A stretch of DNA of 64,000 bases from Candidatus Abyssobacteria bacterium SURF_17 (GCA_003598055.1 QZKI01000026.1:2569-66568); one strand, 5' to 3'. Counted from the stretch's first letter, positions 37,402-50,318 are shown. Made by a program: numbers and translations. The notes: generated from the letters alone by a model not told the origin.

Positions 37402-38565
37402 ATGCGAATCATTCTCTATACTGGCAAAGGCGGTGTCGGCAAGACGACGATATCCGCTGCCACCGCCGTTCGCTGCGCCGAATTGGGCCATAACACCATC
37501 GTGATGAGCACGGACCCGGCCCATAGCCTGGCCGACTCGCTCGACTGCAAGGTGGGGGGGCGCCCCAAGAAGATTGCCGAAAACCTCTCCGCCGAAGAAA
37601 TAGATGTGAACGAGGAACTCAAGCGCAACTGGGGGCGGATACAAAAGTACGTGACAAAATTCCTCAAGAGCCGGGGCTTCGAGGAGCTCATCGCGGAGGA
37701 GTTTGCGGTTTTCCCCGGGATGGAAGAGCTTTTCAGCTTGCTGAAGCTCAAGGATTATTATGAGAAGCAGGCTTATGATGTCGCGATTATCGACTGCGCC
37801 CCGACCGCGAGCACCGTACGCATGCTCAGCATGCCGGACGTCATACGATGGTACATGGACCGTTTCTTCGACATTGAGCGCCGGATTGTCAAGACCGTGA
37901 GGCCGATAGCGGAAAGAATCACGAAAGTTCCCTTTCCCACGGACGACGTTTATGATTCCGTGGAAGACTTGTTTCATAAAGTGGAAGGCATGAAGGAAAT
38001 CCTGACTAACCCCGCAAATGCGTCCATCAGGCTGGTATTCTATCCGGAGAAAATGGTCATCAAAGAATCCCAGAGAGCATACAGCTACCTCAACCTTTTC
38101 GGCTTCACGGTCGACGCCGTCGTAGCCAACCGCATTTATCCGGAAGAGATTGACGATGCGTACTTTGACCGATGGCGCGCAGTTCAGTCAAAATATCTGG
38201 CGGAGGCCCGGACAATCTTTGACCCGCTCCCGATGTTCGTGGGCAAGCTGTTTGACCGCGAGATGGTAGGTCTGAAGCTGCTGCACTCGCTTGCGGCCAA
38301 TATCTTCGGCGACACCGACCCCGCGACGGTCTTCTACAAGGAACCGCCCATAAAGACGAAACGGTCCGACGGGCGGCACACGATGTCCATCCATCTGCCG
38401 GGGACGCACAAAAAGGACCTCAACGTCTGGGTGGCGGGGGAGGAGCTTATCATAGAAGTCGGCAACTACCGTCGCAATATTCTGCTTCCGCGCAGCCTCG
38501 CAAAGACGGACATCGTCGAAGCCAAATTTGAAGGCGATACGCTCAACATCACGTTCGGAAAGTGA
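37402..38565 (+). CDS. ArsA/Get3 family ATPase with C-terminal HSP20-like domain
   Basis: GKGGVGKTT, STDPAHSL, PGMEE, DCAPT; C-terminal LPG..K.DL....GEELIIEVGNYRRNILLP..L......AKF. Confidence 0.9.
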   Translation: MRIILYTGKGGVGKTTISAATAVRCAELGHNTIVMSTDPAHSLADSLDCKVGGRPKKIAENLSAEEIDVNEELKRNWGRIQKYVTKFLKSRGFEELIAEEFAVFPGMEELFSLLKLKDYYEKQAYDVAIIDCAPTASTVRMLSMPDVIRWYMDRFFDIERRIVKTVRPIAERITKVPFPTDDVYDSVEDLFHKVEGMKEILTNPANASIRLVFYPEKMVIKESQRAYSYLNLFGFTVDAVVANRIYPEEIDDAYFDRWRAVQSKYLAEARTIFDPLPMFVGKLFDREMVGLKLLHSLAANIFGDTDPATVFYKEPPIKTKRSDGRHTMSIHLPGTHKKDLNVWVAGEELIIEVGNYRRNILLPRSLAKTDIVEAKFEGDTLNITFGK

Positions 38566-38569
38566 CCAC

Positions 38570-38920
38570 ATGACCGCAAAAAGGCCAGCCGTGGGAGACG
38601 GATTCATCCAGGAGCTTGTGCCGCTTATCAAGAACGGATTCGTCATCCTCCGATCAATCCTCGATATCCTCATCGAGAAGCTTGAGGAAGCTGAAAAGGG
38701 CAGGCAAGTTGATATCCGGAAGGATACGTACGCGTCAATCGTGAATGCGCTCGAGGCCGAAGTCAAAAACGTGCGCCAGAAGGAAGCAGGCACCCCCATC
38801 GGTGAAACGAAAATACAAGTGCTTGAAGCTGTTATCTCGGTGCTTCTCGAACAAATGGAAGAACTGGAGACGAAAACGCGAAAGAAAGGAAAACGCCCGC
38901 AAAAGGTGAAGATAGAGTAA
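38570..38920 (+). CDS. Hypothetical helical protein coupled to the ArsA-like ATPase
   Basis: 116 aa, amphipathic helices, ends RPQKVKIE; 4 nt after the ATPase stop. Confidence 0.75.
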   Translation: MTAKRPAVGDGFIQELVPLIKNGFVILRSILDILIEKLEEAEKGRQVDIRKDTYASIVNALEAEVKNVRQKEAGTPIGETKIQVLEAVISVLLEQMEELETKTRKKGKRPQKVKIE

Positions 38921-38967: not shown

Positions 38968-40242
38968 TTATCCAAACCACACTGATTCGCGCTTCTCAAG
39001 CATCTGGTTGATCATTTCTTGTATCGAATCCCGGACGCCTTCTTTGACCTTGTTGACAAGGATCTCGTCGTCCGTTGCTTCCTTTCCATACTTATCAAAT
39101 CGAATCGGCCGTCCGAACCTGATGTGCCACTTGCTTGGCAGCGGAACCAGCCCGAAGAGGCCGAGCAGAGGCCACGTGGGGGTTACCGGGAAATAGGGGA
39201 GCCCGACCAATTTCCCGAGCCTCTCGGACAGCGCAACCATCGGATATATCTCCTCTGCGCCAACGACCGCCACGGGCACGAGCGGTGTCTTGGTCCGCAT
39301 GCATAATCTGACAAATCCGCCGCGGCCGAACCGCTGAAGCTGATAGCGTTGCCTGAAATGCTTGCCCGTACCTTTTACGCCCTCCGGGAACACGCACACG
39401 AGCTCTCCCTCATGGAGCAGCCGTTCCGCATTTTCCTGGCACGCCCGCGCGCCGCCGATGCGTGCGAGAAACGGGGAAAGAAAAGGAAGCGCGCTGAACA
39501 TATCCTCGACGAGAAAACGGACGTCGCGCCCGCTTCGGCTCTCCCGATGCACCGCTTGACTAATCATGATTCCGTCGAACGGAAGCATCCCGGAATGGTT
39601 CGCAACCAGGAGCGCTCTCCCCTTTTCCGGAACATTCTTGATGCCTTCAACCTCGACGCGCCAGTACTTCTCGTAAAGCCACGTGAATAGCGGCTCTATC
39701 CGCTCCGAATAGATAGGATCCTTCCCAAAGTCGTCAACTTCCTCGGAGCGCTCTCGCAGTCGTAGCGCCCCAAGCAGCTTTCTCATCCTACGGGGGGATG
39801 CGATATCAAACAATCTGTTGAACAAGCTGTGCTCGCCGTCTCCGTTTGACGAAAGACCCTCGTCGCTCTGCGTGCTCACGCCCTCTTCGGACGTCGCCGA
39901 TTCGGTTGAAGCGGTTTCACTCGGCGTGCGCCTTCCGCGCGTTCCGGACGTCTTCTCCCCTGTTTTGGACTTTTGTCCCTTGGCAGGCTGCTTCCGTGTC
40001 TTGCGAACGACTGTTCGAGCTTTCTTCTTCGACATATCAGCATCCCGCTGCTCGACAGTGCCTTCAGAGCCCGGCCTTGAGGGCTCGAGCAGCTTGGCGC
40101 GAGTCAACCCAGCCATTCGATTATCTCCCGTGGAGACTCCTTCTGCTGCTTCCTCAGCTTGAGCCGCTCTTTTCTGCGCCGCCGCCTTCTTTCGAGAACC
40201 AGAACGTGCGAATGGGTCACTGCCGAGCACTCTCTTAGGCAT
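38968..40242 (-). CDS. Lysophospholipid/glycerolipid acyltransferase (PlsC/LPLAT superfamily) with about 135-aa disordered N-terminal extension
   Basis: VDDFGKDP, LLVANHSGMLPFD, FPEG, VPVAVVGAEE, PLPSKW; start MPKRVLGSDPF behind GAGGAGG, overlapping the ParA stop. Confidence 0.88.
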   Translation of the reverse strand: MPKRVLGSDPFARSGSRKKAAAQKRAAQAEEAAEGVSTGDNRMAGLTRAKLLEPSRPGSEGTVEQRDADMSKKKARTVVRKTRKQPAKGQKSKTGEKTSGTRGRRTPSETASTESATSEEGVSTQSDEGLSSNGDGEHSLFNRLFDIASPRRMRKLLGALRLRERSEEVDDFGKDPIYSERIEPLFTWLYEKYWRVEVEGIKNVPEKGRALLVANHSGMLPFDGIMISQAVHRESRSGRDVRFLVEDMFSALPFLSPFLARIGGARACQENAERLLHEGELVCVFPEGVKGTGKHFRQRYQLQRFGRGGFVRLCMRTKTPLVPVAVVGAEEIYPMVALSERLGKLVGLPYFPVTPTWPLLGLFGLVPLPSKWHIRFGRPIRFDKYGKEATDDEILVNKVKEGVRDSIQEMINQMLEKRESVWFG

Positions 40243-40999
40243 TGAGCAAAACCTCCTCAGCCAGGTCTCGCAGCATCTCAGCACCCGTGCTGCGAGGATC
40301 ATATTCCCAGATGGTCAGCCCATGGCTCTGGGCTTCATCTATCCTCACATTGAACCTGATGATGGTCTGTGCCAATCGGTCGGGGAAATACTCCTGGAGT
40401 TTTCCGAGAATCTCATTTGCGAGATTCGTGTTGCGATATAACGTCGGGACCACCATGGCCACGCGGAGCTCGCGGCGTCCATAATTCTCCTTGACCGACC
40501 GAACCGTTTCCATGATTTCGGCGCATCCGTCAAGCGCGAAGTAGGTGAGCGACACGGGGATGATTATCTCATTGGCCGCGAGCATAATGTTAATGGTAAC
40601 CAGCCCGAGCGAGGGAGGCGAGTCGAATATCACGTAATCATATCCCCGAAGGCCGTCGAATCTCTGCTTGAGTTTCCATTCGCGGTCGGCGTCGTTCGCG
40701 GCCGACAGAGGAAAATCCGTGAGCGACTTATTCGCTATGATGACATCGAGACCTTGTATTCGCGTGCGACAGACAACGTCGTGAGGGCGGAGGTCGGGAT
40801 TCGATAGCAGGAACGAGACGGTGTGCTCGGCGTTGTGGACATCGAGCCCGAGCGACTTTCCAACCTGCCCCTGAGCGTCCATGTCCACGAGCAAGACCCG
40901 GAGGCTTTTCTCAAGCGCGAAATATGCGCCGATGTTCACCGCAAGCGTTGTCTTGCAACTTCCTCCCTTTTCATTTACGAATGCAATCTTTCTCATCAC
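40235..40999 (-). CDS. Orphan ParA/Soj family ATPase
   Basis: NEKGGSCKTT deviant Walker A, LLVDMDAQG, DSPPSLG, EAQSHG..I..Y; no parB in the window. Confidence 0.9.
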   Translation of the reverse strand: MMRKIAFVNEKGGSCKTTLAVNIGAYFALEKSLRVLLVDMDAQGQVGKSLGLDVHNAEHTVSFLLSNPDLRPHDVVCRTRIQGLDVIIANKSLTDFPLSAANDADREWKLKQRFDGLRGYDYVIFDSPPSLGLVTINIMLAANEIIIPVSLTYFALDGCAEIMETVRSVKENYGRRELRVAMVVPTLYRNTNLANEILGKLQEYFPDRLAQTIIRFNVRIDEAQSHGLTIWEYDPRSTGAEMLRDLAEEVLLNA

Positions 41000-42021
41000 A
41001 TCTCAGATGCCGTGGAAAGATGGATTCTCCGTAGACGCTTGGCGCCTGCAAATGCCAGGGCCGCCTCGCGGGTGGTGTAGCGTGGTTCGAATCCAAGTTC
41101 GCCCTCTGCCTTCGTCCCGTCGGCCACCCACAAATAGCGCAGGTAGTCAAGATGTTGGCTGGGCGCATCAGCCGCGTTGAAAAATCGCAGTGCTGAAATC
41201 ATGGGGTGCGCAATACCGTAGACCATGGGAATGGAAATCTTTCCCATCACACTCACGACCGTGCGCAGAGGCAAGACGCCCTTTCCGACGATGTTGTATG
41301 CGCCCGAGCAGTCTTTCCTGATTGCGGCCACCAGCGCCCGCACGCCATCATCCTCATGCAGCAACTGCACGAGCGGGTCATACCCCAACAGTGTCGGAAC
41401 AAAAGGGCGTCGGAAATAATCTGTTGCAAGATTCCGAACGGTAGGCCCGAGAATTGTCGCGAATCGGAGCACGGTCACAATCGTACCGGGATGCGATTCG
41501 CGGAACCGCTTCGCGAGATTTTCAACCTCGATACGGTCACGGATGTACCGATAGTTCTTGTTCCCTTCAAGCGGATGGTCCTCAGTAAGGAAATTCGGGT
41601 TTTTCGGAGAAGCGCCGTACACCGCTGTGGCGCTTGCAATAATGATTTTCCGTATGCCCGCCGCAGCGCAAGCAGTGAGCACATGCATTGTGCCGATTAC
41701 TTCCAGTTCATGGGCGTATGATTCGTCTTTCACGGGTCGGCTGAAAAAAGCGAGGTGAGCGACCGTATCCACCCTCTGGGCTCGGAGCACCTCTGCAACT
41801 TCTGAATCCGCAGTGGGCTTTGTGAGGTCTATCTGATGAAAATCCGCGGACTCCCGAAACACGCCGGGTCTTCGGATGTCCATGGTCACTATGCGCTTCG
41901 CGAAATGACGGTCCTCCCTTAGGGAGTCGGCCAGATGACTCCCCAAGAAGCTTGAGGCGCCCGTAACCGCGAGACCCGCAGAGGTGGGGATAGTCCGTCT
42001 CTTACCCTGCTTTTTCACCAA
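40996..42021 (-). CDS. NAD-dependent epimerase/dehydratase (extended SDR)
   Basis: VTGASSFLG, VAHLAF, YGA, Y.RDR, DP..QLLHEDD; stop overlaps the ParA start. Confidence 0.88.
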   Translation of the reverse strand: MVKKQGKRRTIPTSAGLAVTGASSFLGSHLADSLREDRHFAKRIVTMDIRRPGVFRESADFHQIDLTKPTADSEVAEVLRAQRVDTVAHLAFFSRPVKDESYAHELEVIGTMHVLTACAAAGIRKIIIASATAVYGASPKNPNFLTEDHPLEGNKNYRYIRDRIEVENLAKRFRESHPGTIVTVLRFATILGPTVRNLATDYFRRPFVPTLLGYDPLVQLLHEDDGVRALVAAIRKDCSGAYNIVGKGVLPLRTVVSVMGKISIPMVYGIAHPMISALRFFNAADAPSQHLDYLRYLWVADGTKAEGELGFEPRYTTREAALAFAGAKRLRRIHLSTASEM

Positions 42022-42088: not shown

Positions 42089-42117
42089 AATCTAGCACCC
42101 CGTATCGGGATTGTCAA
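42089..42117 (-). promoter_or_regulatory. Sigma70 promoter for the SDR-ParA-acyltransferase operon
   Basis: Minus strand TTGACA-17-TAGATT with extended TG. Confidence 0.55.
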
Positions 42118-42573: not shown

Positions 42574-43482
42574 ATGTCTCGTCCCGGAATACCCGCTCTA
42601 GCGAGACTCTTTCTTGTTGTATCCCTCACGGCTGCGGTAGCCGCTGACAAACCTCCACGTTCCCAGACAATTGTCTACGGCCAGCCCAGACAACTTGGAG
42701 TACTTGCTGACCGGAAAATAAGGGAGAGCAGCGGACTCGCCCGCTCCCTTCTCGACTCGGACGCATTCTGGACTCACAACGACTCAGGCGACATCCCACG
42801 CTTGTTTTTGATCGACCGCAGCGGGCAAACTCTGGCAAGTCTCGTGATTGAGGGAGCGCAGGCAGTAGACTGGGAGGACATTGCCTCTTTCAAACACGGA
42901 ACACACAATTATCTGCTGATTGGCGACGTTGGCGACAATGCCGCTAAGCGTCAGCTGTGCACGCTCTACGTTGTCCAGGAACCAAGAATTGACCGCGAGG
43001 CCCAACCACGCGTGGGCAACCTCCTGCCCTTTATTACTATTCCATTCACGTACGAAGACGGTCCGCATGACTGTGAGTCGGTTGCCGTGGATGCCACAAG
43101 TGGAACGATCTACCTGGTAAGTAAGGGGAAGGGCGACGAGTGCAAGGTGTATGAGCTATTCCTGCCCGTGGAAGAAGTCACCAAACAGTTGGTTGCCCGT
43201 ATGATCGCAAAGCTCGATGTTTCCAAAGCAACTGCAATGGACATTTCACCCGATGGACTGCGCGCGGTGGTGCTCACATATGGCGACGCGTACGAATACA
43301 CTCGCGGCAAGGCCGAGACATGGACCGACGCCTTCGCCCGCCAAGGGCGCGTTCTAACCATGCCACGACGAGTCACTGGTGAATCTATCTGTTATGGAGC
43401 CGACGGCAAGACGCTTTACCTTACAAGCGAACGCGCATTACAGCCGCTGTGGGAGGTTCCGGCCGTTTCCGACACCGAATAG
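42574..43482 (+). CDS. Exported hypothetical protein, probable beta-propeller (HNDSG family)
   Basis: Signal peptide; ESSGL, WTHNDSG, DWEDIA, IGDVGDN, DCES, ESICY. Confidence 0.75.
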   Translation: MSRPGIPALARLFLVVSLTAAVAADKPPRSQTIVYGQPRQLGVLADRKIRESSGLARSLLDSDAFWTHNDSGDIPRLFLIDRSGQTLASLVIEGAQAVDWEDIASFKHGTHNYLLIGDVGDNAAKRQLCTLYVVQEPRIDREAQPRVGNLLPFITIPFTYEDGPHDCESVAVDATSGTIYLVSKGKGDECKVYELFLPVEEVTKQLVARMIAKLDVSKATAMDISPDGLRAVVLTYGDAYEYTRGKAETWTDAFARQGRVLTMPRRVTGESICYGADGKTLYLTSERALQPLWEVPAVSDTE

Positions 43483-43589
43483 CCACAGCGCTAAAGCAGC
43501 CCTCACCAGTATGGGAACCTACGACCAGTTCCGGCTCGCGATTCACGACAGTGAAGGACAATCCGAGAAGTGAGGCCCTTCTTAACAAA

Positions 43590-44132
43590 TCAGGGTTGCA
43601 TCGGTTTGATGTGAAGCTCAACCCGGCGATTCTGCTGACGACCTTCCGAGGTTCGATTTGTCGTGAGCGGGCGGGATTCGCCGTATCCGACAACTTGAAT
43701 TCGGGTGGGATCCAAACCTGCGCCAACAAAGACATCCGCAACGATACGCGATCTTCTTTCAGACAGCCATTGATTGTAGCTCTCTTCGCCCCTGCTGTCT
43801 GTGTGACCCTCAACAATGACTATGAATTCCGGATATCTTTTCAGGACCTGCGCCACGCCTTCAAGGTTTTGCCTTGCTCCGGGCTGGAGAGAGTATTCAT
43901 CAACGCCGAAAAGTGCCACTGCAGGAAATCTGACCACGAGTTCCTGACCATTTACGGGCTCCGCCTTTGCTACCATATTTAATTCGGCATACAGCATACT
44001 AAACGGACCTTGACGAATAATCGTTTCATGCCTTTCGGAAGTGCTCGCGCAGCCTATGACAAGCAAACCAGACAAAGCAAGCGCGAGAATACACGTAACA
44101 ATGCCAGTTTTGTCCAACACAGCTTTTCTCAT
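43590..44132 (-). CDS. OmpA family lipoprotein
   Basis: Lipobox VIG-C; VEGHTD..G...YNQ.LSERR, GYGESRP, NRRVE. Confidence 0.88.
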   Translation of the reverse strand: MRKAVLDKTGIVTCILALALSGLLVIGCASTSERHETIIRQGPFSMLYAELNMVAKAEPVNGQELVVRFPAVALFGVDEYSLQPGARQNLEGVAQVLKRYPEFIVIVEGHTDSRGEESYNQWLSERRSRIVADVFVGAGLDPTRIQVVGYGESRPLTTNRTSEGRQQNRRVELHIKPMQP

Positions 44133-44172
44133 TGGCGCTTACCTATCTCCATAACTTTATCATTCGGGATCA

Positions 44173-46983
44173 TTACGCGCTTGTCTTTGTGTCCAGCACG
44201 GTTCTGACTCTGGAAAGCAGTTCCTCCAGTTGAAACGGTTTCTGAATGAATCCCATGACGCCGGTGCGCAGGATCTCGTTCACTTTTCCATTTCGGCTGT
44301 AACCCGTCGAGAGGAGGGCTTTGACTCTCGGATTAAGCTCCTTGAGTTTTAGGAAAGTCTCCCGGCCTCCCATTCTGGGCATGACCATATCGATAATAAC
44401 CAGACCTATATTGCCATTGTTCTCTCTGTATGCATCTACCGCTTCAACTCCGTCTCTAGCCACCAAGACCGTATACCCGTAGGATTCGAGGGCGTCTTTG
44501 GCAAGAGATCGCACTACTTCCTCATCATCCACGACAAGGATCAGTTCGTTTCCACCACGTGCCGCCGGCTGTTTGCTTGCGTCCCTCATTTCGGACTTTC
44601 CGCTGGCCGGGAGATAGATTTTAAATTTCGACCCCTTGCCGCGCTTACTCGACACGCTGACATGGCCCCCATGATTTTTCACGACACCATAGACCATCGA
44701 CAAGCCGAGCCCAGTGCCTTTCCCCTTTTCTTTTGTTGTGAAGAAGGGCTCAAAAATTCTCTGCACCGTTTCTTTGTCCATTCCAACTCCGGTGTCCGTT
44801 ACCGACAGAACCACATATGAACCTGGTCTGGCCTCCGCATGCCTTTGGGCTTGTTCCACCGTAAGGGTCTCATGGTCTGTCTCAATGTTCAGTTTTCCCC
44901 CGCTCGGCATTGCGTCACGCGCGTTCAAGCACAGGTTAATCAGCACTTGTTGCACTTGCCCGGGATCGGCTTCCACTGTTGGAATCGAGTCACGCAGATG
45001 GACGTCGATTTCAATCAACTTATCGAAGGTTCTACCGATTATTTCCAGCGTTTCATCCACCACGCTGTTCAAAGAGATGATCTTTGGCTCGTATCTCCCG
45101 CCCCGGGCAAACGCCAAGAGTTGTGCGGTGAGCTCTGCGGCTCGATTGGCGCTTTTCTCGATCGTATCAGCATAGCTGAAAACCTGATGATCTTTACGAA
45201 GCTTTGCTTTCATCAAAGATGCGTAGCCCAGAATCCCACCGAGAAGGTTGTTGAAATCATGCGCAATACCACCCGCCAACGTGCCGATGCTTTCCATCTT
45301 CTGCGCCTGGAGGAGTTGCTGCTGAAGCTGAAATTTTTCTGTGATGTCGCGCGTCACACCCATGAGTCCGGCTAGAGTGCCTTTTGAATCATACAGGAAA
45401 CTGACTTTAGTCTCTGCCCAGATCGTGACTCCGTCTTTCCGGCATATCTCTGAGTCCACCGTGCGCGCCCATGATTTCTCTTTCTGTTCCTGACCCTTTG
45501 CGAATTCCTCCACGAGTGTCTTCATAGCCATTTCAAGGGAAGGAGGAGACAAGAGCTCTTGCATTGTTTGACCGATTGCTTCTTGAGGGGTGAGTCCCAG
45601 AACCCGCGTGACCGAGGGACTGATGTAGGTAAGCCGGAAATTCAAGTCTGCGATCCAGATAATGTCAAGCACATTCTCGGCAAGCAACCGGTAGTTGCTC
45701 TCGCTTTCCTCTCGAGCTTTCTCCGCCTGATTGCGCTGCTCAATCTCAAACTTCAATTTGTCATGCGAAATTCGAAGCTCCTCTGCCGATCGAGCAATAG
45801 CTTCCAGTTCGGTTTTCCGTTTCTGACTTCTGGAGTAAATTACGCCGACTGCTCCCACTATAACCATCATGAGAGCTGCGCCCAAAAAATTGTTTCTTGT
45901 ATTCCTCTTCACCGGGGCGGCAATCTCTTCATAATCGGTGGTCATGGCGATTGACCACATTTGATCACCCAGCTTGATGGGTAAGAATACAACAGCCTTC
46001 TTTACTATTTCTGTTGTCTTGTCAGTTCGCCTCATGGAATGGTATACGCCGTGGCCTTCTTCGCCATCCGTCATCCTTCGGACGATGTGCTCAAACTCGG
46101 ACCAGTCGAAATCTGCGAAAGTATCCTCCTCTGCCTTGAGGATATTCTTGCCGATGAAGTCGGGGTTTGAATGAGATAGTATGAGCCCCTTGTCGTCTAT
46201 AACCCATATGGCGCCCGTGGACCCGGCCTGAATATGGCAAATGGACCTGCCGAACGTATCCACGTTGATCAAGATGGATAACAGACCCAAGAAATTGGCC
46301 TCGTCAAAAACGGGATTGCAGATATAAAAACCTATTGCACCAGGAGAGAGTGCAAAAATCTCGCTCACATAGGGCTTATGGTTCTTCAGCACATATCCTA
46401 TTCCCGGTGCCTTGGAAAAATCCTTTCCAATAATACCGTTCCTGTGCGGAATCCTGTGCAAGACCACCCCTTTTTTATCCATTCTATAAATGGAATCAAC
46501 CCTACCTCCCACGTGTTCCAACAACGCCTCTCCGGCAGCATAGTCGTTGTAAGGTAAAGGCTGCCCTTTTTTGAATTCGCCACTGAAGGGTTTCCTGGCG
46601 AGAAGCCCCAGATAGTCCTGAATTTCCTGAATAAACTGTTCTATGTATTGAGCTTTCTCTCTGGTAATACCGAACATGTATCGATTAACCTTGGTAACAG
46701 TCTCCTCCTCAAACTTCAGAATATTCCTTCGGGTCCAGAGAACGATCCCTGCCGCAAAGAGAAAGCACGCTGCTATAAACAACGTCCTATTAATGAGATG
46801 TATTGTGCTCGGCGGCAAGGTGATGACCCTGATCACGAGCATCTTCCTGAGCCAATTTAGTATTTCCGTGGCTCGCCCTCTAAATATAGTCCAAGGTCTT
46901 CTCAGGCCGCCCAATTTGGTAACCTCTTCCTGCCCTTGGGATTCCTCGAGTGTGACATGTTTCTGAAATTTGAACTTCATCAC
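44173..46983 (-). CDS. Hybrid sensor histidine kinase (TM-Cache-TM-PAS-HisKA-HATPase-REC)
   Basis: GGIAHDFNNLL, NLCLNARDA, DTGVGM, FFTTK, GTGLGL, VVDDE, IDMVMP. Confidence 0.93.
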   Translation of the reverse strand: MMKFKFQKHVTLEESQGQEEVTKLGGLRRPWTIFRGRATEILNWLRKMLVIRVITLPPSTIHLINRTLFIAACFLFAAGIVLWTRRNILKFEEETVTKVNRYMFGITREKAQYIEQFIQEIQDYLGLLARKPFSGEFKKGQPLPYNDYAAGEALLEHVGGRVDSIYRMDKKGVVLHRIPHRNGIIGKDFSKAPGIGYVLKNHKPYVSEIFALSPGAIGFYICNPVFDEANFLGLLSILINVDTFGRSICHIQAGSTGAIWVIDDKGLILSHSNPDFIGKNILKAEEDTFADFDWSEFEHIVRRMTDGEEGHGVYHSMRRTDKTTEIVKKAVVFLPIKLGDQMWSIAMTTDYEEIAAPVKRNTRNNFLGAALMMVIVGAVGVIYSRSQKRKTELEAIARSAEELRISHDKLKFEIEQRNQAEKAREESESNYRLLAENVLDIIWIADLNFRLTYISPSVTRVLGLTPQEAIGQTMQELLSPPSLEMAMKTLVEEFAKGQEQKEKSWARTVDSEICRKDGVTIWAETKVSFLYDSKGTLAGLMGVTRDITEKFQLQQQLLQAQKMESIGTLAGGIAHDFNNLLGGILGYASLMKAKLRKDHQVFSYADTIEKSANRAAELTAQLLAFARGGRYEPKIISLNSVVDETLEIIGRTFDKLIEIDVHLRDSIPTVEADPGQVQQVLINLCLNARDAMPSGGKLNIETDHETLTVEQAQRHAEARPGSYVVLSVTDTGVGMDKETVQRIFEPFFTTKEKGKGTGLGLSMVYGVVKNHGGHVSVSSKRGKGSKFKIYLPASGKSEMRDASKQPAARGGNELILVVDDEEVVRSLAKDALESYGYTVLVARDGVEAVDAYRENNGNIGLVIIDMVMPRMGGRETFLKLKELNPRVKALLSTGYSRNGKVNEILRTGVMGFIQKPFQLEELLSRVRTVLDTKTSA

Positions 46984-47555
46984 GTTTGACCACCGGTCGT
47001 CCGACCCAAACAGACATGGCTCTGCCCTTGGCCAGCAGGCTGAATCTGCGGCTGATTACTTTCCCATCTTGTTGAAGTGAGCATTTTTTGTGCCGGTAGA
47101 AGGCGAATCAAGTGGATTGACGTAATTCCTTATCATGTAATAAGTTAAGCGTTCAGGAGTTATGACCCCTTTTCCTTGGGAAAGTGCTTCCTTGCGCAAT
47201 TGGGGACAAAATCCCTTCAGCTATGGCTTTATCACGTCGGAGCGCAAGAAGTCCCGCCCGTCGGAAAATTCCCGCTTTGCTTGTGCTACCCGGCGCCGTG
47301 TCCCTCTGCGTCTCGGGCCTGCGACCCATCCGGCGGGTTCGGAACAATCCTCAAAGAGTCGACACTGCACACCTCGAAGACATAGGAACAACTTGCGGAA
47401 TTACCTCATTGGCAGGATGTGAGCAGTTGAAACGAAATCATCGCTGTCGTGGTAAAAAAACGGCGGAGCAAGCGGCATGCAGAGAAAGAACAGCGACGCC
47501 AGAAACCTCCTTATTCTTCCTGAGAATTCAATTCTGGCGTTGCGCAGTAATTTCA

Positions 47556-48887
47556 TCAGATGAAGCGTCTCCCGAACGCTTTTTCCTTCCAACGATTTTC
47601 ATGAGGTCTCTGGCGCACGCCTTTTTCGAGGAGAAGCTCCACCCCGAGCTTCTGAATGCGCTCTGTATTCAGATGACAGACTTGTTGCCCCATTCTGGAT
47701 AATATTGAGGCCACCAGGTGCGACTGATATGGGCGGAACGCATACACGCATGCAAGGCGCACTCGAGCGGCATCCATGTATGCGGGAATACGGAGCTGTA
47801 CGTGCGGGTCGGGCTGATAGCCATCCAGAAACGCGTCGGCGGCCGCCATGGCCTCGGCTCGTGACAGGAGACTTTGGAGATGCCGCAACTCGAAATGAAC
47901 AAGCGCATTTGCTATGTCCAAAGCCGCCTCTCCCACGGCCAGGCCATCAAAGCCGAGAAACCCTATGCGCCCCTGTGTATCAACGAATATTTGCTTGTCG
48001 TATACATCTCCATGCAACAGAACAATGGCGGGCGCATCTGCAGCGAGGGGCCGAAACACGTCGGATGCAGCGGCAAGTACCTGAAGAAAGAAGTGCGGCG
48101 CGAACGACTTAATCTGTGTGATCCAGAACTTAATGGTCTCGATTTCTTCGCTGGGTCCGCGGCGCCGCGACCGAACCGAATCGGAAACTGAGTGGAGCTT
48201 TTGCAGGGCGTTGCCCGCCGCCCGTGCGGCCGGAATGAGTTGTTGAGATTTCAGCAGACTGTGAAGCGATTGACCCTCCAACGCTGAAAATACGAGAATG
48301 CCGGCTTTCAGGTCGGCCCGTATCAGTTCCGGAACTGAGAAATCGCCGCCACCCAGTTTCCGGATCGAGTGTGCAGTGGAGACGAACTCCCGAAACCGGT
48401 CGGCAGCCAAAACTTTCGCGTAAGAAAGGCCCTCCGACAATTCAAGCCTCACAACGGCGCGCTCTTCGGGCCGATGTGAAACCAGTTCAGCGTCGGGGCG
48501 TGCCACCAGTGACGCCAAGGCAGGCAAGCGACGGTCCACCCCGTCCGCCTGAAGCATGACCCCAATCGACGGCAACTCCAGTAATTTTTGCCTTTTTTGG
48601 AGAGAACTCCCGGATGTTTCTTGTAATACCATCTGCAAATGCTTGGCGCTGGCAAACCATTGCCCGGCAATGGAGGTGTTTCCGGCGGCATATTCAATCA
48701 GCAGGCAGTCATGCGAACGCGGCCATGCTCGCTGCAAGCGTAAAGGACCGAGCGGAATACCGAGTCGCTTGCTGTCGGCGGAGGATAATTCGAGGATAGA
48801 AAGCTTATTCAAAAGGGAGTTAGTCATTGCCCGCAACCGGTGGATCTCTGCCAGAACGGCGACAACATTTTGAGCGTTTTGCGCCAC
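47556..48887 (-). CDS. Aminoglycoside-phosphotransferase/choline-kinase-like fold protein
   Basis: HRPEERAVV, HGDVYDKQ (Brenner-like), LGFD, GEAALD; start uncertain. Confidence 0.7.
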   Translation of the reverse strand: MAQNAQNVVAVLAEIHRLRAMTNSLLNKLSILELSSADSKRLGIPLGPLRLQRAWPRSHDCLLIEYAAGNTSIAGQWFASAKHLQMVLQETSGSSLQKRQKLLELPSIGVMLQADGVDRRLPALASLVARPDAELVSHRPEERAVVRLELSEGLSYAKVLAADRFREFVSTAHSIRKLGGGDFSVPELIRADLKAGILVFSALEGQSLHSLLKSQQLIPAARAAGNALQKLHSVSDSVRSRRRGPSEEIETIKFWITQIKSFAPHFFLQVLAAASDVFRPLAADAPAIVLLHGDVYDKQIFVDTQGRIGFLGFDGLAVGEAALDIANALVHFELRHLQSLLSRAEAMAAADAFLDGYQPDPHVQLRIPAYMDAARVRLACVYAFRPYQSHLVASILSRMGQQVCHLNTERIQKLGVELLLEKGVRQRPHENRWKEKAFGRRFI

Positions 48888-49322: not shown

Positions 49323-49712
49323 TCAGGATGTTTTCTTCGGCAGCCGGGCAACCCGCCTCTCGAGTTGAGCAATTTTCTTCGAGAGCGCATCCACGTCTTT
49401 CTTCGTGGGCAGGCGGAAGCTCTTCAATACCTTTTGGATTCTATCGTCGATGTTTTTCTCAAAGTCCTTGCGATTTCTTCGGGTGCGTTTGCGGAAGTCA
49501 CTCACGATCTTCTTGCCCTCTTTCTCCGAAGCTTCGCCCCGCTCGACGAGGTCGCGCACAAACTTCTCGATTCCTTCTTCCGCAATAGAGAACGCCCCGA
49601 CGGATGCCAGGATCGGAGTTCGGAGCACATCAATCCACGTCCATTTCTCTTGCTTTCCCTTCGGCTTCGGTGCTGCCTTCTTCGTACGTTTTCCTGATTT
49701 TGTGGCAACCAT
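49323..49712 (-). CDS. Phasin-like granule-associated protein (PhaF/PhaI type)
   Basis: LASVGAF, LVERGE, LPTKKDVDALSKKIAQL, Lys-rich termini. Confidence 0.82.
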   Translation of the reverse strand: MVATKSGKRTKKAAPKPKGKQEKWTWIDVLRTPILASVGAFSIAEEGIEKFVRDLVERGEASEKEGKKIVSDFRKRTRRNRKDFEKNIDDRIQKVLKSFRLPTKKDVDALSKKIAQLERRVARLPKKTS

Positions 49713-49724
49713 TGCGTTACCCTC

Positions 49725-50318
49725 CTATTCTCTTTTTCGCGACCGCGTTCTCCGTGGCCGCGAGGCCGCGAGATGAGCGTCTAACCTCTTGATAATTGAA
49801 TCCACTCTCTTCGAAATCGCTTCGAGCTCGGCGCGGCTCGGCAGATGCATCGCCTCTACGAAAGCTTCCACCCGCTCCTCGATTTCGCTTTCGAGAGAAC
49901 GCCGTCGTCTGGTAACCGAACGAGACAGAAGCTTGAGGTAGTTCTTGGCCTCGTCTTCGCTCATCTCTCCATAATCGACGAGTCTCCGATAATACTTCGA
50001 TGCGCTTTCCTCCGCCATTTGCATGGCGCCCTTGCTGGCCAACCTCGACTTGCGCATGATCTCATTGAGAGATTCGCTGCCACGCTTTATCAAATCCTTA
50101 AGGGCGTCGAGCGGGAGCACGCTGCCCTTCGCTTTCTCTTCCTCCGCCATTGCCTGCGCGAGCACGACGCTCGTCAGGTCCTCTCCCGTGCGGCTGTCAG
50201 AGACTTCCACATCCTCGCCCGCCCTCACAAGCTTCAGTATGTCATGCAGGCTCACATAGTGGCTTTCTTTTGTGTCATACAGTTTCCGGTTTGCATAGCG
50301 CTTTATGGTGCGGGTCAT
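49725..50318 (-). CDS. PhaR-type DNA-binding domain (PHB_acc_N) fused to a phasin-like domain
   Basis: IKRYANRKLYDT..S.YVSL, TGEDLT..VLAQ; C-terminal LVDYGEMS...LPSRAEL. Confidence 0.85.
   Translation of the reverse strand: MTRTIKRYANRKLYDTKESHYVSLHDILKLVRAGEDVEVSDSRTGEDLTSVVLAQAMAEEEKAKGSVLPLDALKDLIKRGSESLNEIMRKSRLASKGAMQMAEESASKYYRRLVDYGEMSEDEAKNYLKLLSRSVTRRRRSLESEIEERVEAFVEAMHLPSRAELEAISKRVDSIIKRLDAHLAASRPRRTRSRKRE

Follow-up and report, generated by a model that had tools for sequence, protein, structure and literature searches.

A stretch of 64,000 nucleotides from Candidatus Abyssobacteria bacterium SURF_17 (GCA_003598055.1, QZKI01000026.1:2569-66568; hereafter the window) carries an operon in which a ParA-type ATPase without a ParB partner is encoded between a short-chain dehydrogenase/reductase (SDR) and an acyltransferase that begins with the peptide MPKRVLGSDPF. 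Judged by sequence comparison, this ATPase belongs to a dedicated, monophyletic ParA subfamily which in several phyla is attached to one kind of module, either between SDR and acyltransferase or straight after the gene of a phasin-like protein. Phasin-like proteins, the SDR-acyltransferase pair and the ParA subfamily are three mutually linked things because each recurs beside the others across the sampled loci. We consider it probable that the locus is part of a ParA-based system which acts on an inclusion with a phasin coat, to which the enzymes SDR and acyltransferase belong. The chances are about even for the more specific proposal, i.e. a ParA-driven system that positions a phasin-coated storage inclusion where the SDR/acyltransferase pair works.

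Positioning of cargo by ParA/MinD ATPases is known as such; new would be the cargo and, possibly, a tag borne by an enzyme. A 2025 review lists storage inclusions only with passive nucleoid tethers (PhaM, PhaF, PhaH, AlgP); it gives their ATP-dependence as unknown and offers a carboxysome-like system as a speculation (PMC13052382). The ParA subfamily may be the missing ATP-driven spacer of bacterial storage inclusions. It is large, was not found described in the literature, and makes the question of inclusion spacing testable in tractable organisms. An initial annotation of the window had suggested that ParA distributes lipid-synthesis sites or droplets over the nucleoid, and its authors knew of no description of such a cargo. 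Our literature searches on ParA with acyltransferase, phasin or lipid droplet likewise found no description of the arrangement.

An orphan ParA in an SDR-acyltransferase operon

The three genes are on the minus strand and joined by successive stop-to-start overlaps, as initially annotated: SDR (40996-42021), ParA (40235-40996) and acyltransferase (38968-40242). SDR stop and ParA start overlap in ATGTGATGA, and ParA stop and acyltransferase ATG share 8 nt (ATGCCTAA). The acyltransferase gene, located downstream of ParA, occupies the slot of parB in parAB operons. The first gene codes for an atypical extended SDR of 341 amino acids with a TTG start (PF01370, 93.7 bits). Just upstream of it is a promoter-like site (42089-42117, minus strand) consisting of TTGACA, a 17-nt spacer and TAGATT with a TG before the -10, recognized by 10 of 12 consensus matches only; inside the operon no promoter-like site was found on the minus strand.

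The junction of ParA and acyltransferase differs between the window and close relatives (loci, genomes and contigs are designated by L, G and C). In L086, L087 and L104 the ParA C-terminus (...AKKGSRQ) and the acyltransferase start MPRKVLGS share nucleotides in different frames, a dual-coding overlap of 26 nt; in the window an earlier TAA cuts it to 8 nt. A natural ParA-acyltransferase fusion was not found: the 596-aa frame of L152 was merely an open upstream frame.

The ParA protein has 253 or 254 amino acids, depending on whether ATG 40996 or GTG 40999 is the start. It matched PF13614 with 144.6 bits (cut-off 27) and PF01656 with 66.2 bits (cut-off 25.4). The Walker A motif, annotated as KGGSCKT, was read as N-E-K10-G-G-S-C-K15-T-T, with K10 and K15 invariant in all 12 clade members. 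A deviant Walker A with the signature lysine and profile matches above cut-off place the protein in the ParA/MinD group. The match to the NCBIfam model ParA_partition (NF041546) was below cut-off (92.8 vs 180 bits). The absence of parB from the window was confirmed; across the genome ParB_N matched only on contigs C17 and C30, not on the window contig, and the cognate ParB which would define a ParABS system was not found within the window. The canonical parA-parB pair of the genome is on C17, and its chromosomal ParA shares 37% identity with the window ParA. Because this pair and a third ParA-like gene lie elsewhere in the genome, the window ParA is an extra, ParB-less copy. The third gene (C19:15409-16158; 32% identity, in a 355-aa open frame) formed a very long branch, grouping neither with the chromosomal ParAs nor with those linked to acyltransferases. 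A further ParA-like protein was seen in L093, from a Polyangia metagenome-assembled genome (MAG; G002). Its N-terminus is extended by a Cys-rich part resembling a zinc ribbon (…CSHCGREF…FCTVDC…); this genome has an acyltransferase with the LGxDPF motif and is devoid of the dedicated ParA subfamily.

The window ParA was aligned to Myxococcus xanthus ParA (PDB 8RAY), and D60A served to check the numbering offset. The window protein retains the catalytic D40 and four of the six residues of the hydrophobic ParB-binding cleft (L97, L130, L132, I135). R218 aligns with R238 of M. xanthus ParA, and the R238E mutant loses non-specific DNA binding (PMC12462528). This position is Arg or Lys in 10 of 12 clade members and Ala in the other two, L125 and L092. 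The C-terminus reads ...DLAEEVLLNA, i.e. the protein apparently is without a MinD-type C-terminal amphipathic membrane helix. The alignment fits a presumed nucleoid-binding ParA with altered partner specificity.

In the phylogenetic tree the acyltransferase-linked ParAs formed a single clade with 100% support and a long stem, separate from the chromosomal ParAs. The Walker A of the subfamily is N-E-K-G-G-[ST]-C-K-T-T. More than 1481 homologs had E-values below 1e-40, from sources which include Myxococcales, Deltaproteobacteria, Ca. Alcyoniella, Ca. Lernaella, Poribacteria and Abyssubacteria. Within Myxococcota, 244 of 401 genomes (61%) carry one copy. Five subfamily contexts were sampled from long contigs. 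Four of them (L171, L172, L173, L175) have a phasin-like protein of 97-110 amino acids directly upstream of ParA and no SDR or acyltransferase near; in the fifth (L174) the order is a phasin-like protein with a histone-like tail, SDR, ParA, acyltransferase. This last order, i.e. phasin-like gene, SDR, ParA and acyltransferase, was also found in L086, L087, L090, L092 and L152. Among the 30 best Myxococcota loci a phasin-like gene is directly upstream of ParA in 16, and an adjacent SDR or acyltransferase in none. The SDR-ParA-acyltransferase arrangement was seen in at least four lineages from two phyla, in ordinary chromosomal contexts beside mfd and dxs.

Of 80 loci from Myxococcota, Acidobacteriota, Actinomycetota (Streptomyces and mycobacteria among them) and Chloroflexota, 77 have an SDR gene adjoining the acyltransferase gene on its upstream side, without an intervening ParA. 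By this distribution the SDR-acyltransferase pair is evidently ancient and ParA an insertion into it. Many of the Streptomyces loci (within L040-L085) are about 1-15 kb from the end of a draft contig, which suggests a repeat nearby, perhaps an rRNA operon.

The catalytic domain of the acyltransferase is well defined. PF01553 matched residues 195-326 (72.1 bits), and in an AlphaFold2 model (45-sequence alignment) residues 139-159 formed two short helices and residues 176-417 a confident domain (predicted local distance difference test score, pLDDT, about 90); together with the stop codon this part corresponds to 38968-39837, minus strand. The best Foldseek match was Thermotoga maritima PlsC (5KYM; E 6e-9, 17% identity), followed by GPATs and PatA. 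The first motif is N-H216-S-G-M-L-P-F-D223, that is HX6D and not the canonical HX4D, with N-H-S-G-x-x-P-x-D as the form of the family and N215, H216, S217, G218, P221 and D223 invariant across homologs. The protein has a PlsC/GPAT fold and yet, because of the HX6D motif and because TIGR00530 remained below cut-off (35.6 vs 102.95 bits), is not a bona fide PlsC. A weak match to PF03982 (DAGAT, DGAT2 family; 26.2 bits, cut-off 22) covers residues 251-394 only; a precomputed match exists in some orthologs and not in others.

The SDR partner is odd. In an alignment of 103 partners from the fetched loci the Gly-rich motif T-G-x-x-x-F-x-G and S-x-T-x-V-Y-G are conserved. The column of the catalytic Tyr, however, holds Phe in 77 and Tyr in only 20 of the 103, and the Lys column holds Lys in 40. 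The window SDR has Y159 and R163 at these columns, not the canonical Tyr-x-x-x-Lys. Close to them, D162 and E167 were invariant in the family. Because most members are devoid of the catalytic Tyr and Lys, this atypical family probably does not serve as a conventional oxidoreductase; the SDR may be a non-catalytic nucleotide-binding subunit. For the same reason a function as acyl-dihydroxyacetone-phosphate (acyl-DHAP) reductase, which would have made the two enzymes an acyl-DHAP pathway pair, was dropped. Literature searches retrieved no functional study of the SDR-acyltransferase pair. Mycobacterial Rv0502/Rv0501, which may be orthologous to this pair, are annotated only as conserved protein and epimerase.

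The N-terminal peptide and its association with ParA

The longest open reading frame (ORF) of the acyltransferase opens at 40302, 20 codons before ATG 40242. In orthologs a stop codon is located one or two codons 5' of the Met in M-P-[KR]-x-V-L-G. Because of these stops the start at 40242 is secure, giving a protein of 424 amino acids which begins MPKRVLGSDPF; thus a start downstream of the peptide, named at the outset as what would dispose of it, does not apply. A Shine-Dalgarno sequence, GAGGAGG, was read 9 nt 5' of this ATG within the ParA coding region (40252-40258, minus strand). The peptide comprises codons 1-11 (40210-40242, minus strand). It is followed by a tether from residue 12 to about 135 (39838-40209, minus strand). 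AlphaFold2 predicted residues 1-133 to be disordered (pLDDT 37-54). The tether of about 130 residues is, as initially described, of low complexity; it is first basic and Lys/Arg/Ala-rich, then acidic and Ser-rich, and VDDFGKDP before the catalytic domain corresponds to residues 169-176. The tether is unalignable between orthologs, unlike peptide and core.

The 120 homologs together with the fetched loci yielded 29 distinct sequences that start with M-[PA]-[KR]-x-V-L-G-x-[DN]-P-F-[AE], always at the extreme N-terminus; beyond it the acyltransferases could not be aligned until the core. The claim that the peptide forms the true N-terminus of the enzyme is supported, with a linker predicted to be disordered behind it. 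Third codon positions in the peptide vary freely, yet the residues V-L-G-x-D-P-F are fixed. Because synonymous change is free while the residues are kept, the peptide is, as far as codons tell, translated and under purifying selection at the protein level. The motif is equally conserved where no ParA is present. This, and the overlap of only 8 nt in the window, means that dual coding does not explain the conservation. A scan of the ORF N-termini across the 4.64-Mb genome matched the acyltransferase only; a further match on C121 was a junk frame. Scanning a metagenome collection with a degenerate DNA pattern gave no second protein family with the tag. Of 24 matches eight were acyltransferases and the rest apparently chance, e.g. 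short ORFs, an enolase-type internal Met and a 754-aa protein without a nearby ParA.

Does the peptide go with ParA? In the phylum of the window, 7 of 11 genomes have the ParA subfamily, and exactly these seven have the SDR-ParA-acyltransferase arrangement. All seven acyltransferases carry the peptide. The nine SDR-acyltransferase paralogs of this phylum which are without ParA begin MATEKTRKRK..., and none has it (7/7 vs 0/9, Fisher p = 9e-5). Outside the phylum, the ParA-linked acyltransferases of L089, L090/L091, L125, L126 and L137 bear the peptide, in L125 in degenerate form; L090/L126, L125 and L137 are counted as independent clades. In a second small phylum (G003, G014-G017) all five genomes have ParA. 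There, the ParA-adjacent acyltransferase is short and without peptide, and each genome has an unlinked acyltransferase paralog that begins ...LG-x-DPFA, followed by a long basic tail. Altogether three paralog types per genome were noted here (L156-L170): SDR-ParA-acyltransferase with the short N-terminus, the lone LGxDPF acyltransferase with the long basic tail, and a third in reversed order with the SDR downstream. A Myxococcales genome (G018) has the phasin-ParA combination and, not ParA-adjacent, an SDR-acyltransferase beginning MAKAPVLGNDPF (L177). In this locus MAKAPVLGNDPF directly follows the SDR stop in a frame that differs from the one of the acyltransferase core; as the MAG was built from long reads, an indel made by the assembly within the low-complexity linker is probable and a real frameshift the other option.

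Counted by locus, 12 ParA-linked acyltransferases have the peptide and 6 do not, compared with 12 and 95 of those not linked (odds ratio about 16). Counted by genome, a peptide-bearing acyltransferase is present in 13 of 15 ParA-bearing genomes and in 2 of 6 without ParA (p = 0.03). In the acyltransferase tree, whose deep branches were weakly supported, the ParA-linked members were spread over at least three places. A common origin of all peptide-bearing acyltransferases was rejected (approximately unbiased, AU, test, p = 0.0007), and a single clade of the ParA-linked ones was not (AU test, p = 0.067). The initial annotation had asked whether the motif is restricted to acyltransferases beside ParA. 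It is not: the motif is present, with no ParA beside it, in L014, L023, L127, L177 and the L135 group. What stands is a strong enrichment which is exclusive in neither direction. The asymmetry, i.e. nearly all ParA genomes have a tagged acyltransferase and tags also occur without ParA, is suggestive, not decisive; such a pattern is expected if a dedicated ParA depends on the tag but the tag can also serve, e.g., a housekeeping ParA.

The peptide had also been likened to the N-terminus of ParB. Here the claim held for one half. The ParB of the genome starts MVEKKVLGKGLKALIG and the acyltransferase MPKRVLGSDPFARS, with a common first half K-[KR]-V-L-G. In ParB the motif that binds ParA is L-G-R-G-L-x-x-L-I, in which the hydrophobic residues and the central Arg are essential (PMC12462528). 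The likeness is a lead only. In general, the N-terminus by which partners act on ParA is charged and disordered (PMC10241942). That the acyltransferase peptide is a ParA contact is, in our judgement, a possibility with chances a little short of even.

A number of findings weigh against a peptide-mediated positioning by ParA. The second half of the peptide, D-P-F, is unlike the ParB helix, and where ParB has its central basic residue the peptide is variable, position 8 being S, N, K or T. Two residues of the ParA cleft differ: S167 stands in place of L187 and Y172, which most clade members have as Phe, in place of L192. The peptide occurs in L014 and L023 (Myxococcota), from genomes without the ParA subfamily whose best ParA matches are canonical parAB, and the peptide-bearing SDR-acyltransferases of L127 and of the L135 group, a peat-metagenome group which begins MPKRVLGNDPFERG..., have no ParA within 12-13 kb. 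Conversely, six ParA-adjacent acyltransferases are without the peptide (L092, L152-L155, L174), and genomes G019 and G020 have ParA and no peptide-bearing acyltransferase. The co-occurrence counts are inflated by shared ancestry, with about four independent ParA-bearing lineages sampled. Lastly, ParAs of this subfamily most often have the small phasin-like protein next to them, not the acyltransferase.

Phasin-like neighbours and the presumed cargo

Two genes for phasin-type proteins are located upstream of the operon on the same strand. One codes for a phasin of 129 amino acids with a basic N-terminal tail (49323-49712, minus strand; PF05597, 49.3 bits, cut-off 28.8), the other for a protein of 197 amino acids in which a PhaR-like DNA-binding domain is fused to a phasin domain (49725-50318, minus strand; PF07879, 87.7 bits, and PF05597, 35.5 bits, both above cut-off). 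In the closest relatives PhaR-phasin fusion and phasin are directly upstream of the SDR, whereas in the window an insert of about 7.3 kb is in between. Orthologs of the window phasin directly precede the operon in L086 and L087, and orthologs of the fusion are near it in L086, L090 and L126. Compared with L086, the insert (42574-48887) holds a 302-aa protein which matched no family (42574-43482), an OmpA-like protein (43590-44132), a hybrid sensor kinase of 936 amino acids (44173-46983) and a protein similar to APH-type phosphotransferases (47556-48887).

The window phasin weakly matched the small phasin-like family which flanks the ParA subfamily elsewhere (3e-5); a member of that family, in L171, reached 31.3 bits with PF05597. 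The profile of this small family also matched proteins encoded just before SDR-acyltransferase pairs without ParA, namely in Acidobacteriota, Thermoleophilia and Chloroflexota, and upstream of the SDR in L090, L092 and L152. Phasin-type proteins with histone-like basic tails recur, e.g. in L092, L174, L017 and as the window phasin.

The genome has no detectable polyhydroxyalkanoate (PHA) synthase, although at 92% completeness one could have been missed: PF07167 did not match and TIGR01836 gave 22 bits (cut-off 365). A WS/DGAT match was absent as well, but control genomes were equally blank, which leaves this negative uninformative. The material under the phasin coat may be other than PHA. Because phasin and PhaR genes occur without a detectable PHA synthase and a weak DGAT2-like match exists, we favour, with low confidence, an inclusion of neutral lipid or another non-PHA material. 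The conserved phasin and PhaR-like neighbours support a granule or lipid body as cargo, the latter as initially annotated.

How would such a system operate? ATP-bound ParA dimers would coat the nucleoid. The tethered acyltransferase peptide MPKRVLGSDPF would touch the ParA dimer as do the peptides of ParB, McdB and PomX, and would stimulate ATP hydrolysis. Enzyme-bearing inclusions would travel along ParA gradients, and this would result in even spacing and inheritance. The basic tails of the phasins and the tether itself would probably add a direct attachment to the nucleoid. In its boldest form the proposal takes the 11 residues M-x-[KR]-x-V-L-G-x-D-P-F as a portable ParA 'luggage tag' on a lipid-synthesizing enzyme, by which nascent droplets would be carried over the nucleoid. 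The carrier would be the dedicated ParA where present and the housekeeping chromosomal ParA in tagged lineages without one. At present we regard this form as rather doubtful.

A different distribution of roles, about as doubtful, has the phasin as the partner of ParA and the acyltransferase just as a co-operonic granule enzyme; the LGxDPF peptide would have another function, e.g. docking to another granule or membrane protein, the housekeeping ParA, a protease or a chaperone. The many loci described above in which a phasin-like gene is directly upstream of ParA with no acyltransferase near are in line with this, as are the gene order phasin-like, SDR, ParA, acyltransferase and the two genomes with ParA and no LGxDPF acyltransferase. 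In addition, the basic N-terminal tail of the window phasin is probably disordered. However, a ParA-specific N-terminal feature was not found on the phasin-like proteins examined: those of L017, L027 and L050, without ParA, resemble those of L173-L175. The window phasins are 7.3 kb away from ParA, whereas the acyltransferase start overlaps its stop, and the perfect paralog-level correlation of peptide and ParA in the phylum of the window would be left unexplained.

Is a nucleoid involved at all? ParA could be an assembly or regulatory ATPase similar to BcsQ, FlhG or MinD, which recruits or gates the enzymes at the membrane or a pole or switches their activity, with no nucleoid cargo. Its gene is tightly coupled in translation to the enzyme genes on either side; this, the weak matches to BcsQ and MipZ families and the Ala in place of R218 in two clade members would suit such a function, and with an apparently non-catalytic SDR the module may be a regulated complex. 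Against this, 10 of 12 clade members retain a basic residue at the DNA-binding position, a MinD-type amphipathic helix is apparently missing, the histone-like tails of the associated phasins point to the nucleoid and most Myxococcota ParA copies have no adjacent enzyme. We consider a regulatory ATPase improbable. An incidental adjacency, or a ParA for partition of mobile-element DNA or for anti-phage defence with an unrelated peptide, is most improbable: ParA-like NTPases are, indeed, widely recruited to defence systems (bioRxiv 10.64898/2026.10.19.760177) and orphan ParAs occur on integrated elements too, but the arrangement is kept at ordinary chromosomal sites in two phyla and at least four lineages, 61% of the sampled Myxococcota genomes have this ParA as a core gene in one copy, no ParB, integrase or effector is nearby and none of five proteins tested had a PADLOC match.

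Positioning of a phasin-coated inclusion by ParA is the reading which we prefer, and other conserved neighbours may belong to it. Convergent with the operon is a gene for an ArsA/Get3-like ATPase with a C-terminal HSP20-like domain (37402-38565, plus strand; PF02374, 319.7 bits; PF17886, 69.7 bits). Its end is overlapped by a gene for a small helical protein of 116 amino acids with a C-terminal K-V-K-I-E tail conserved in orthologs (38570-38920, plus strand). The small protein had no Pfam or PADLOC match. The two genes are also beside the ParA-linked acyltransferases of at least five lineages (L086, L087, L089, L090 and L126), and the pair may insert or chaperone proteins of the inclusion surface. 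The small protein was considered as a second carrier of a ParB-like peptide (MTAKRPAVGDGF...) and rejected, as orthologs beyond the phylum do not keep this N-terminus.

The SDR-acyltransferase pair, also present in Streptomyces and Mycobacterium, is flagged by these data as a probable enzyme system of storage inclusions. For synthetic biology, an enzyme carrying its own ParA tag would be a useful minimal positioning module.

Relation to known systems

The acyltransferase shares with PlsC (5KYM) and other GPAT/LPLAT acyltransferases the fold, the Pfam Acyltransferase domain and the invariant His and Asp of the first motif. It differs from PlsC by HX6D, the long disordered N-terminal extension, the obligate atypical SDR partner and the weak match to the DGAT2 family.

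Passive attachment of inclusions to the nucleoid has precedents. Like PhaF, PhaM and PhaH, the modules described here contain phasin-type proteins with histone-like basic tails, implying a granule-nucleoid attachment (PMC13052382, PMC3556143). In those systems an ATPase is missing; here ParA and an acyltransferase are present and a PHA synthase was not found. Lipid droplets of Rhodococcus bind DNA via the droplet surface protein MLDS (PMC5504291). This is a precedent for neutral-lipid droplets attached to the nucleoid, yet there is no ParA in the MLDS system.

Compared with the chromosomal ParABS system of M. xanthus (8RAY, PMC12462528), the window ParA has the same ATPase fold (37-40% identity, 136 bits to 8RAY) and has kept K10, K15, D40, most of the cleft and the DNA-binding Arg (R238, equivalent to R218). 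A basic residue and V-L-G open the product of the downstream gene, as they do the ParB of the same genome (KKVLGKGL). In contrast to ParABS, no ParB, helix-turn-helix or CTPase domain is found here, and the peptide continues with x-D-P-F instead of G-L-x-A-L.

McdA/McdB of Synechococcus elongatus and Halothiobacillus neapolitanus also comprise an orphan ParA-type ATPase which is encoded with its cargo genes and has a partner with a charged, disordered N-terminus (PMC10241942, PMC13052382). In both instances the cargo would be a protein-coated cytoplasmic inclusion, here presumably nucleoid-spaced. Unlike in McdA/McdB, the neighbours in the locus are SDR, acyltransferase, ArsA-like ATPase and phasin, and carboxysome genes are missing from it; the window ParA keeps the signature Lys of the Walker A; and the candidate peptide is fused to an enzyme, without a dedicated adaptor. 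Should the reading of the peptide as a tag be true, this would be the first ParA/MinD system with an enzyme as the partner and the first ATP-driven positioning of bacterial storage inclusions, across Abyssubacteria, Myxococcota and several candidate phyla.

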